Shown here piece after piece: positions 27,776 through 46,757 of a stretch of DNA of 64,000 nt. Within the stretch, counting starts at the first letter, position 1, and every line of letters starts with the position of its first letter. The DNA is from Escherichia coli (GTDB taxonomy: Bacteria; Pseudomonadota; Gammaproteobacteria; Enterobacterales; Enterobacteriaceae). Under the pieces are notes generated by a model. It did no database searches and was not told where the DNA came from. It saw only the letters and a program-made list of their open reading frames with translations. A program made the translations under genes and the position numbers. The stretch lies in the NCBI RefSeq assembly GCF_003790525.1, contig NZ_CP033635.1. One strand, given 5' to 3'.

Positions 27776-27900
27776 ATCTTAATATTTGATTATCCTTTGC
27801 GCGGCATGATGTCGCGCTTTTTTTATGCGTCATTTAGTTACAACATACTCATATTATATTGGCTTATTTCGCCGGATTTCATTAAGAGCCATTAATATGT

Positions 27901-34889: not shown

Positions 34890-35192
34890 GGGTGAGTTGT
34901 CGGATGCGCTTCGCTTATCCGAACTTCAGGGGAGGATATTTTAGGTCCGGTAAACGCGGTGCCATCGGGCAGAATTAGCTCGGAGTAACAGGTTTTGAGT
35001 ATTTCAGGAAGTAATGGTGGTGGGGGAAGGATTACTAGCGCTGCGCGCTTCACCCTTCGGATCGTTGCCTGCGGCAACGCTTTCTCGCTGGCGCTCGAGT
35101 CGCACCTTGGTCGAAGCTTCTCATCCCTCCCCGCATGGGCAGAATATTTAATTGCGGATTCGTTTGAGAGTTCACGGACTTTTGAAAAGTGA
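34890..35192 (-). repeat. tyrT operon distal repeat region (carries copies of the tRNA 3' end; expected location of rtT RNA / tpr)
   Basis: tggtggtgggggaaggatt (3' end of tRNA-Tyr, reverse complement) recurs at about 35012 and again at the tRNA starts about 180 bp apart; exact tpr/rtT boundaries not resolved. Confidence 0.5.
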
Positions 35193-35277
<85 letters not shown>

Positions 35278-35311
35278 AGGGGTAATTCAAATTTTGAGGT
35301 AATGCTTGAGA

Positions 35312-35396
<85 letters not shown>

Positions 35397-41300: not shown

Positions 41301-41918
41301 ATGGCACAGCTATATTTCTACTATTCCGCAATGAATGCGGGTAAGTCTACAGCATTGTTGCAATCTTCATACAATTACCAGGAGCGCGGCATGCGCACTG
41401 TCGTATATACGGCAGAAATTGATGATCGCTTTGGTGCCGGGAAAGTCAGCTCGCGTATAGGTTTGTCATCGCCTGCAAAATTATTTAACCAAAATTCATC
41501 ATTATTTGATGAGATTCGTGCGGAACATGAACAGCAGGCAATTCATTGCGTACTGGTTGATGAATGCCAGTTTTTAACCAGACAACAAGTATATGAATTA
41601 TCGGAGGTTGTCGATCAACTCGATATACCCGTACTTTGTTATGGTTTACGTACCGATTTTCGAGGTGAGTTATTTATTGGCAGCCAATACTTACTGGCAT
41701 GGTCCGACAAACTGGTTGAATTAAAAACCATCTGTTTTTGTGGCCGCAAAGCAAGCATGGTGCTGCGTCTTGATCAAGCAGGCAGACCTTATAACGAAGG
41801 TGAGCAGGTGGTTATTGGTGGTAATGAACGCTACGTTTCTGTATGCCGTAAACACTATAAAGAAGCGTTAGAAGTCGGCTCATTAACGGCTATTCAGGAA
41901 AGGCATCGCCACGATTAA
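41301..41918 (+). CDS. tdk: Thymidine kinase
   Basis: ORF track; 205 aa with P-loop SAMNAGKST. Confidence 0.95.
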
Positions 41919-42168
41919 TAAGAATTTCTTTACTGACAGGGTGAGCAGGGCGCTTTTATCCTGTCAGTTCATTTTACGCACTTCATCCGGTGTATATACC
42001 CTTCTCGACAGTTCTTTAACGCCACTATACCCCTCACAGATCGCTTTTACAGTGACGTTGACTTGTGACCTGTAAAGTACAATATCGCTGTGTGTAGGCG
42101 TTATACATCGCCGTAAATATGATGAAGGCAAATGCTGTCGGTTTATGGGAAAGTTGCTTTGGGTAAAA

Positions 42169-42196
42169 CAAAAAAACGGCCCCAGAAGGGACCGTT
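42169..42196 (-). terminator. Putative rho-independent terminator of adhE
   Basis: Minus-strand hairpin acggtccc..ggggccgt followed by T-run, about 25 nt after adhE stop. Confidence 0.55.
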
Positions 42197-42220
42197 TATG
42201 TTGCCAGACAGCGCTACTGA

Positions 42221-44896
42221 TTAAGCGGATTTCTTCGCTTTTTTCTCAGCTTTAGCCGGAGCGGCTTCTTTTTTCGCTGCAGTTTCACCTTCTACATAAT
42301 CACGACCGTAGTAGGTATCCAGCAGAATCTGTTTCAGCTCGGAGATCAGTGGGTAACGCGGGTTAGCGCCGGTGCACTGGTCATCGAATGCATCTTCAGA
42401 CAGTTTATCCACATTCGCCAGGAAGTCTGCTTCCTGAACGCCAGCTTCACGGATAGATTTCGGAATACCCAGTTCAGCTTTCAGCGTTTCCAGCCATGCC
42501 AGCAGTTTCTCGATCTTAGCAGCAGTACGGTCGCCCGGTGCGCTCAGACCCAGGTGGTCAGCAATTTCAGCATAACGACGGCGAGCCTGCGGACGGTCAT
42601 ACTGGCTGAATGCAGTCTGCTTGGTCGGGTTGTCGTTCGCGTTGTAGCGAATAACGTTACAAATCAGCAGGGCGTTTGCCAGACCGTGCGGAATATGGAA
42701 CTGGGAACCCAGTTTGTGCGCCATTGAGTGACATACACCCAGGAAGGCGTTCGCAAACGCGATACCCGCGATAGTTGCTGCACTGTGAACACGTTCACGC
42801 GCTACCGGATTTTTAGAACCTTCGTGGTAGGACGCTGGCAGATATTCTTTCAGCAGTTTCAGTGCCTGCAGTGCCTGACCATCAGAGAACTCAGATGCCA
42901 GTACAGAAACATAAGCTTCCATGGCGTGAGTTACTGCGTCCAGACCACCGAAAGCACACAGAGACTTCGGCATGTCCATAACCAGGTTGGCATCGACAAT
43001 CGCCATATCCGGGGTCAGCGCATAGTCTGCCAGCGGATATTTCTGACCAGTAGCGTCGTCAGTTACAACCGCAAACGGAGTGACTTCAGAACCTGTACCA
43101 GAAGTGGTGGTGACAGCGATCATTTTCGCTTTCACGCCCATTTTCGGGAACTTGTAGATACGTTTACGGATATCCATAAAGCGCAGCGCCAGCTCTTCGA
43201 AGTGAGTTTCCGGATGTTCGTACATAACCCACATGATCTTCGCGGCGTCCATCGGGGAACCACCACCTAGCGCGATAATCACGTCTGGTTTGAAGGAGTT
43301 TGCCAGTTCTGCACCTTTACGAACGATGCTCAGGGTCGGGTCAGCTTCTACTTCGAAGAAGACTTCAGTTTCAACGCCTGCTGCTTTCAGTACGGAAGTG
43401 ATCTGATCAGCATAACCATTGTTGAACAGGAAGCGGTCAGTCACGATGAGCGCACGTTTGTGGCCATCAGTAATCACTTCATCCAGCGCGATTGGCAGGG
43501 AGCCACGGCGGAAGTAGATAGATTTCGGAAGTTTGTGCCACAACATGTTTTCAGCTCGCTTAGCAACGGTTTTCTTGTTGATCAGGTGTTTCGGACCAAC
43601 GTTTTCAGAGATGGAGTTACCACCCCAGGAACCACAACCCAGAGTCAGGGAAGGTGCGAGTTTGAAGTTATACAGGTCACCGATACCACCCTGAGAAGCC
43701 GGGGTGTTAATCAGGATACGAGCCGTTTTCATTTTCTGACCGAAGTAAGAAACGCGAGCCGGTTGGTTATCCTGGTCAGTGTACAGGCAAGAGGTATGAC
43801 CGATACCGCCCATAGCAACCAGTTTCTCTGCTTTTTCTACCGCATCTTCGAAATCTTTAGCACGGTACATTGCCAGAGTCGGGGACAGTTTTTCATGTGC
43901 GAACGGTTCGCTTTCATCAACAACGGTCACTTCACCGATCAGAATCTTGGTGTTTTCTGGTACAGAGAAGCCTGCCAGTTCAGCAATTTTATAGGCTGGC
44001 TGACCAACGATAGCCGCGTTCAGCGCACCGTTTTTCAGGATAACATCCTGAACAGCTTTCAGCTCTTTACCCTGCAACAGATAGCCGCCGTGGGTTGCGA
44101 AACGTTCACGTACTGCGTCATAAACAGAGTCAACAACAACAACAGACTGTTCAGAAGCACAGATTACGCCGTTGTCGAAGGTTTTGGACATCAGCACAGA
44201 TGCAACTGCACGTTTGATATCAGCAGTTTCATCGATAACAACAGGCGTGTTACCCGCGCCTACACCGATAGCTGGTTTACCGGAGCTGTATGCGGCTTTA
44301 ACCATGCCCGGACCACCAGTCGCGAGGATCAGGTTGATGTCTGGGTGGTGCATCAGTGCGTTAGACAGTTCAACCGAAGGTTGATCGATCCAGCCGATCA
44401 GATCTTTCGGAGCACCGGCAGCGATAGCAGCCTGCAGAACGATATCAGCTGCTTTGTTGGTTGCATCTTTTGCACGCGGGTGCGGGGAGAAGATAATAGC
44501 GTTACGGGTCTTCAGGCTGATCAGCGATTTGAAGATAGCAGTTGAAGTCGGGTTAGTGGTCGGAACGATACCGCAAATAATACCGATTGGTTCAGCGATA
44601 GTGATGGTACCAAAAGTGTCGTCTTCAGACAGAACACCACAGGTTTTTTCATCTTTATAGGCGTTGTAGATATATTCAGAAGCAAAGTGGTTTTTGATCA
44701 CTTTATCTTCGACGATACCCATGCCGGATTCGGCAACGGCCATTTTCGCGAGTGGGATTCGAGCATCTGCAGCAGCCAGAGCGGCGGCGCGGAAGATTTT
44801 GTCTACTTGCTCTTGAGTGAAACTGGCATATTCACGCTGGGCTTTTTTTACACGCTCTACGAGTGCGTTAAGTTCAGCGACATTAGTAACAGCCAT
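42221..44896 (-). CDS. adhE: Bifunctional acetaldehyde-CoA/alcohol dehydrogenase
   Basis: ORF track; 891 aa [35 protein letters not shown]. Confidence 0.97.
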
Positions 44897-46057: not shown

Positions 46058-46757
46058 ACTTCGTCATTATTTTTACTTTGTTCCGGTGCAGTTATCAAAA
46101 GCAAAAGGAATGGGTAAAAATATTCTTCTTAAATTACAGTTTGTTATAAGGATTTCCTTAACTGCTTCTCGTCACCATCATGTTATTTTCGCCACATCAT
46201 AATCCTGGGCTTGCTGAAGAATAATTGAAATGATATTAGTAATTCCACTGCCTTTGGTAGAGGAAAGTGCTAAATAATAATCAATTGTTAAATTATTGTG
46301 CATTTCACTACTGGAACTGTAATCAGAAAAGATAGACATGCTTAACCCATCTCTATTTGATTGAATTGAAAGATGTTTGTTAAGACATGGATGCAAGCTA
46401 TAGATTCTGATACGGTCAATAAAAGAGAATTGCTTAACAATTTTGCAAAATGTATTGGCGAGTAAGAACCGCATTTGGTACTTTCCGGGCAACCGCCAGG
46501 CGATTCTTTATTGGTAATGAGAATAATTAACAATTAAAGAGCGTCGTGAAAGAATAATGTGTCTCGACAGGGGAGACACAGTACGAATCGACATAAGGTG
46601 ATCGTCTGAATCACCAGAATAAATAAAGTCGGTGATAGCAATCCGTAACGATAAAGTAACCTGACAGCAGAAAGTCTCCGAGCCTGTGCAGGGTCCCAAT
46701 CCGGGATTACACATGCTGGTTAATACCAGTAATTATAATGAGGGAGTCCAAAAAACA

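Follow-up and report, generated by a model that had tools for sequence, protein, structure and literature searches.

The IS-free tdk-adhE spacer of an Escherichia coli SMS-3-5 clone-mate as the very likely ancestral allele of an adhE terminator hit repeatedly by IS4-subgroup elements

Elements of the IS4 subgroup are bounded by direct repeats of 10-13 bp, and the subgroup features of the elements described below agree with a review of the IS4 family (PMC2266710). In Escherichia coli K-12 MG1655, the interval between tdk and adhE is annotated with 'insertion sequence:ISZ' and the pseudogene insZ (b4573). The sole literature found on insZ is a PhoB ChIP paper, which places insZ between tdk and adhE and includes all three genes together among those that are up-regulated (PMC3465305). 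What occupies this interval in another E. coli strain? In the 64,000-nucleotide stretch of DNA analyzed here (the window), tdk and adhE converge on a 302-bp intergenic spacer (41919-42220) that is free of IS and contains no annotated gene. MG1655 shares with the window the flanking genes, the hairpin downstream of tdk and both halves of the adhE terminator, and the two loci are collinear after removal of ISZ and its 10-bp duplicate; the spacers are about 92% identical and the flanking genes about 98%. However, a 989-bp ISZ relic splits the loop of the adhE terminator in MG1655, whereas the loop is whole in the window. We consider it very likely that the window spacer represents the empty, ancestral state of a site at which IS4-subgroup elements have inserted repeatedly because of its terminator architecture.

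The spacer is defined by two open reading frames whose coordinates include the stop codons. The tdk coding sequence (thymidine kinase; 41301-41918, plus strand) is annotated as such in SMS-3-5 and MG1655, and the adhE coding sequence (42221-44896, minus strand), identified from the ORF list and annotation, encodes the 891-residue bifunctional acetaldehyde-CoA/alcohol dehydrogenase. Directly after the tdk stop codon (TAA, 41916-41918), a further in-frame TAA occupies 41919-41921. This tandem TAATAA end (41916-41921) is common to MG1655 and the other compared E. coli and is not present in E. albertii. Searches with ISZ or IS4 (blastn) and with the IS4 transposase (tblastn) revealed no IS4 or ISZ similarity, either within the spacer or across the rest of the 64-kb window, and the roughly 1-kb ISZ sequence with CAATGCCG ends is absent from between tdk and adhE. 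The preliminary description of this sequence, which reported a spacer of about 300 bp without an IS-derived pseudogene and placed insZ at this position in MG1655, is thus borne out on both points. The spacer consists of two convergent, conserved terminator-type hairpins with about 205 bp of seemingly unconstrained DNA between them.

The hairpin on the adhE side is a putative intrinsic terminator (42165-42197, minus strand), recognized by a terminator scan, by folding and by conservation across genera. On this strand it begins 23 nt past the stop codon of adhE; the stem-loop AAACGGUCCC-UUCU-GGGGCCGUUU occupies 42197 to 42174 and leads directly into the U-tract UUUUGUUUU (42173 to 42165). The terminator scan reports a 10-pair stem with 6 G-C pairs, a 4-nt loop and the tail UUUUGUUUU, and the predicted fold has a free energy of -20.9 kcal/mol (z = -3.2). 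Two of its pairs show compensatory changes, and the structure is conserved in three genera, namely Escherichia, Salmonella and Citrobacter. A G+C-rich stem-loop, an immediate U-tract and a position just past the stop codon are the sequence features of an intrinsic (Rho-independent) terminator, and all three are present.

The hairpin on the tdk side (41932-41968, plus strand) starts 13 nt past the tdk stop codon and folds into 16 pairs with a 4-nt loop, followed by UUCAUUUUAC (minimum free energy of -20.5 kcal/mol; z = -3.8 against shuffles). The preliminary description had noted here an inverted repeat enclosing a long loop. The arms, ctgacagg at 41933-41940 and cctgtcag at 41960-41967, are real and lie inside this hairpin, but the intervening bases also pair, so that the long loop gives way to a nearly continuous stem. 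The stem is kept across the six Escherichia lineages compared. One A-U pair is replaced by G-C in E. albertii, a full compensation, and by G-U in another Escherichia lineage, and G-U and A-U alternate at two pairs. The tail provides only a weak U-tract (UUCAUUUUAC), weaker still in E. albertii, and the terminator scan flags just a sub-stem. The hairpin is probably the intrinsic terminator of tdk, with a weak U-tract. Both spacer hairpins are therefore best read as putative terminators, of the tdk and adhE transcripts, respectively.

The occupied alleles identify the insertion target precisely. Pairwise alignment matches window positions 41301-42190 to MG1655 1293527-1294416 and window positions 42181-44896 to MG1655 1295406-1298121; the two blocks use 10 window bases twice, and MG1655 therefore has 989 extra bases. 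The MG1655 ISZ has imperfect terminal inverted repeats (CAATGCCGTTCACTTAAG and CAATGCCGATCAGTTAAG) and is flanked by the 10-bp direct repeat CCCAGAAGGG. In LWY24, the same position is occupied by a complete 1426-bp IS4 whose 448-codon transposase gene is intact; it lies in the orientation opposite to that of UTI89 and has the 12-bp duplication CCCCAGAAGGGA. The UTI89 IS4, which is 98% identical to the full-length LWY24 copy, carries an internal deletion, is annotated as frameshifted and is flanked by CCCCAGAAGGGG, again a 12-bp duplication. The junctions of the three strains place the target, present in the window as a single copy, at 42180-42191: these 12 bp (CCCCAGAAGGGA) are the IS4 duplication, and the inner 10 bp (CCCAGAAGGG, 42181-42190) are the ISZ duplication of K-12, which comprises the loop and inner stem of the adhE terminator. 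The dyad axis of the hairpin falls between 42185 and 42186, and both duplications are centered on it. No second copy of the 10-bp target was found in the window spacer, and there is no scar. Each occupied allele equals the empty allele plus the element and one repeat of 10 bp (MG1655) or 12 bp (UTI89 and LWY24), and in silico removal of the IS and one duplicate from the three strains leaves spacers of 300-302 bp, each of which aligns with the window spacer over its full length.

The elements at this dyad are of two kinds. In translation, ISZ matches residues 29-249 and 397-438 of the IS4 transposase at 31% identity; the part in between is missing, the reading frame contains stop codons, and DNA similarity between ISZ and IS4 is limited to about 34 bp at one end. 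These values rule out ISZ as merely a deleted IS4. The element ends, TAATGCC in IS4 and CAATGCC in ISZ, correspond to the -AATR termini of the subgroup, and the inserted elements are assigned to the IS4 subgroup by these termini and by IS4-type transposase similarity (448 codons in LWY24; 31% amino acid identity for ISZ) rather than by DDE/YREK motifs. ISZ is thus a dead IS4-subgroup element with an internal deletion and is distinct from IS4. Between them, these two elements account for at least three independent insertions at one dyad.

ISZ-related sequences are also found elsewhere. Plasmid pECOD1-1 carries a frameshifted, 87% identical ISZ-like copy of 1406 bp (917-2322 of the extracted locus) with a 10-11-bp duplication, and ISZ-related sequence occurs at 155 plasmid places in total. 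Fragments of 94% identity lie at a second chromosomal locus near nanM in the O157-like E. coli strain ERL06-2497 (1501-2273 of the extracted locus), and the tdk-adhE site is empty in the genomes with these nanM-side fragments. No intact ISZ transposase gene was seen among the ISZ-related sequences outside the tdk-adhE site.

In strains bearing ISZ or IS4, the adhE terminator is split (4375-4446 of the extracted MG1655 locus and 3503-3575 of the UTI89 locus; window equivalent, 42174-42197). The adhE-proximal side retains the 5' half of the stem, the loop and the duplicated bases, followed by the IS end, and the U-tract lies approximately 1 kb or more away. Therefore, read-through from adhE into the IS would be expected in the occupied strains and not in the window strain. 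For K-12, this arrangement predicts adhE read-through into insZ, which lies on the same strand.

How common is the empty allele? Alleles were called in 5426 complete E. coli genomes with 100-bp junction queries, for which coverage of at least 80% is possible for one allele only. The junction search assigned 2196 genomes to the empty site, 1886 to ISZ, 1137 to IS4 in the UTI89 orientation and 191 to IS4 in the LWY24 orientation; these are genome tallies from junction matches, and the number of independent gains is therefore a minimum (at least three). Together, the four states account for 5410 of the 5426 genomes (99.7%). The empty state, at about 40%, is the commonest single state and includes O157:H7 strains. 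This four-allele presence/absence polymorphism can serve as a simple lineage marker.

The tdk-adhE pair was recovered throughout Enterobacterales in a pattern scan of one genome per species. The spacer is 326 bp long in E. albertii, 302-317 bp in three other Escherichia lineages, 195 bp in Salmonella enterica subsp. diarizonae, and 142 and 224 bp in two Citrobacter species; in each of them it is IS-free and the adhE hairpin is intact. Because these outgroup spacers are short, free of IS and equipped with an intact hairpin, the empty state is ancestral. The absence of an IS is thus not peculiar to the window strain; it is both the commonest single state in E. coli and the ancestral one. Since none of the eight outgroup spacers examined carries an IS and each has its hairpin intact, a loss does not have to be postulated, as it would be if the empty spacer were derived, that is, if an ancestor of the SMS-3-5 lineage had lost ISZ or IS4 by precise excision between the target duplications with restoration of the terminator. 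Precise excision between short direct repeats flanking inverted repeats is a known, rare event, and ISZ is old and widespread enough (1886 genomes, decayed) to have been available for it; nevertheless, IS4 is present in two orientations, each of which must have entered an empty site, and the window has exactly one target copy and no scar. We therefore regard a derived empty spacer as very improbable and retain the ancestral reading.

Why has this site been hit repeatedly? IS4 insertions at unrelated positions offer a comparison. IS4 lies at the eno terminator in the context AAAAAATGC[CAGCCCGAAGGCTG]GCATTTTT and inside fiu in the context AAAAAACGCA[CCCACGCCGGGG]ACGTTTTT, and the resident IS4 copy of K-12 lies in the context AAATAGGC[ATCTTGGTTCTG]GTGTTT. 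At each of the three sites, an A-run is separated from a following T-run by 18-20 bases, which in many cases form a dyad. The context of the 1406-bp ISZ-like copy on pECOD1-1 is comparable, so that the layout of A-run, dyad and T-run is common to four independent IS4 sites and one ISZ-like site in a small sample compared by inspection. Mayaux et al. reportedly defined, in 1984, an AAA-N20-TTT consensus for IS4 targets, with which these sites agree. We infer that IS4-type transposases prefer the A-tract, hairpin and T-tract of a bidirectional terminator and that the adhE terminator is one such site.

Within 302 bp, three separate events involving two elements hit a single dyad with base-pair accuracy, a precision that is difficult to reconcile with the view that the insertions reflect chance and tolerance in a neutral gap between convergent genes rather than recognition of a hairpin. 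Convergent intergenic regions are indeed generally permissive for insertions, and the detailed examination covered IS4-subgroup elements only, which leaves chance some scope. However, the A-run, dyad and T-run are shared by unrelated IS4 sites, one of which lies inside the fiu coding sequence and hence not at a neutral location, and the four states, which cover 99.7% of the genomes, leave little room for other insertions into the spacer. Chance combined with tolerance thus seems to us very unlikely, and target architecture, rather than chance or selection, probably explains the repeated hits at the adhE terminator.

On the basis of terminator architecture as the target, the history of the locus may be outlined as follows. 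IS4-type transposases would make staggered cuts symmetric around the dyad of the hairpin, which would duplicate 10 bp in the case of ISZ or 12 bp in the case of IS4. K-12 and its relatives would have inherited a dead, internally deleted ISZ, strains of the UTI89/APEC O1 type carry an internally deleted IS4 at the adhE terminator, and a smaller group carries an intact IS4 in the opposite orientation. In the SMS-3-5 clone, to which the window belongs, the site would never have been hit.

A more general proposal would be that the IS4 subgroup reads bidirectional intrinsic terminator architecture as a target, in a 'safe-harbour' strategy as yet without a systematic description. This proposal draws on the fact that IS4 and ISZ, which are only approximately 31% identical, inserted independently at the same base-pair-exact dyad and that other IS4 copies lie in terminator-like sites. 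We consider it conceivable but rather unlikely. If true, it would make it possible to predict, for any enterobacterial genome, which terminators are liable to be split.

Both ends of the spacer are conserved, and the filler between the hairpins (41969-42164; about 200-205 bp) is poorly conserved in the Escherichia alignment, with many substitutions and indels relative to E. albertii and three other Escherichia lineages. No gene is annotated in the middle of the spacer in SMS-3-5 or MG1655. An Rfam scan of 41700-42400 at permissive E-values returned no family at threshold, and its three sub-threshold chance matches all fall on the adhE terminator. The filler probably has no specific function. 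That the approximately 200 bp between the hairpins encode an undescribed small RNA or small protein, which would then be the real interest of the spacer, is scarcely credible, since the program-made ORFs of 44, 55 and 45 codons that overlap the spacer and the one promoter-like match at 41933-41962 are set against a stretch that is less conserved among Escherichia lineages than any other part of the spacer, has no Rfam match near threshold and no annotation in either reference genome, and belongs to a spacer that is much shorter in Salmonella and Citrobacter; the single promoter-like match is no more than shuffles yield (0.8 expected). The three ORFs were accordingly rejected as genes, given that the region is not conserved and nothing is annotated there.

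The provenance of the window follows from whole-region alignment, in which MG1655 differs in content and SMS-3-5 is the closest reference. The window is 99.99% identical to SMS-3-5 (NC_010498.1, 1902055-1966054, reverse strand), with the same gene order and the same empty spacer, and identity reaches 100% over 1400 bases that include tdk, the spacer and the 3' end of adhE. The first 56,988 bases contain 5 mismatches (SNPs at 3193, 5103, 9257, 27310 and 31410), and the remaining 5,682 bases are identical. The SMS-3-5 record contains an extra segment of approximately 1.3 kb at window positions 56983-56988, within the kch-yciI island, which the window does not have. According to its annotation, this segment encodes a programmed-frameshift transposase of the IS3 family and is inserted into another IS3-family remnant. 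The island region is common to about 30 complete genomes, and for several of them, including 2D, XDL and LS45, the match to the window is unbroken there. The five SNPs and the one missing IS copy rule out the window as the exact RefSeq SMS-3-5 record; the window is a clone-mate of SMS-3-5 and not the deposited RefSeq sequence.

The preliminary description had concluded from the same differences that the strain is related to, and distinct from, MG1655, and the alignments agree with it. The ycgV region spans only 5269-5679 in the window, as opposed to 3.7 kb in MG1655; two Ldr toxin genes are present, as opposed to three in MG1655; and the yciI island is a 4.7-kb insert at 56162-60868, between kch and yciI. 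Combined with the empty site, the absence of ycgV, the presence of only two LDR copies and the island between kch and yciI place the window in the SMS-3-5 clone and not in K-12.

Other differences from MG1655 were also observed in the window. A further K-12-specific IS nearby, IS5U/insH21 (MG1655 1299499-1300693), is absent from the ychE-oppA intergenic region at window positions 46270-46273. Just past the narK stop codon (27776-27781), the window lacks a 127-bp insert of MG1655 (1279350-1279476), whose core CACCCCAGTCACTTACTTTAGTAAGCTCCTGGGATTCA we take to resemble an ERIC/IRU repeat. The insert lies within the narS sRNA annotation (1279337-1279520), and its absence would therefore make the narK 3'UTR/NarS region about 127 nt shorter in the window lineage. 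The tyrT/tyrV region (35009-35330), with its tandem tRNA-Tyr genes and rtT repeats, aligns to MG1655 in two registers; the two tRNA genes are 35 nt apart in the SMS-3-5 annotation and 209 nt apart in MG1655. The registers and spacing indicate a different number of rtT-type repeat units.

The IS polymorphism at tdk-adhE is already annotated and common, and the dyad-centered use of the terminator is consistent with the known target specificity of IS4. The locus illustrates how IS4-type elements can repeatedly target the hairpin of an intrinsic terminator and leaves current understanding unchanged; its chief value is as an indicator of strain provenance. With respect to IS4 itself (1426 bp; insG in K-12), the adhE terminator of the window corresponds to a demonstrated IS4 site in other strains, and the 12-bp duplication there is typical of IS4; the window has only the target and no IS4 copy. 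The IS elements that target REP sequences likewise prefer structured, palindromic and non-coding intergenic landing sites (PMC1525189). The palindrome here is a single-copy intrinsic terminator rather than a REP, and the elements that use it are DDE transposons of the IS4 subgroup with duplications of 10-12 bp.
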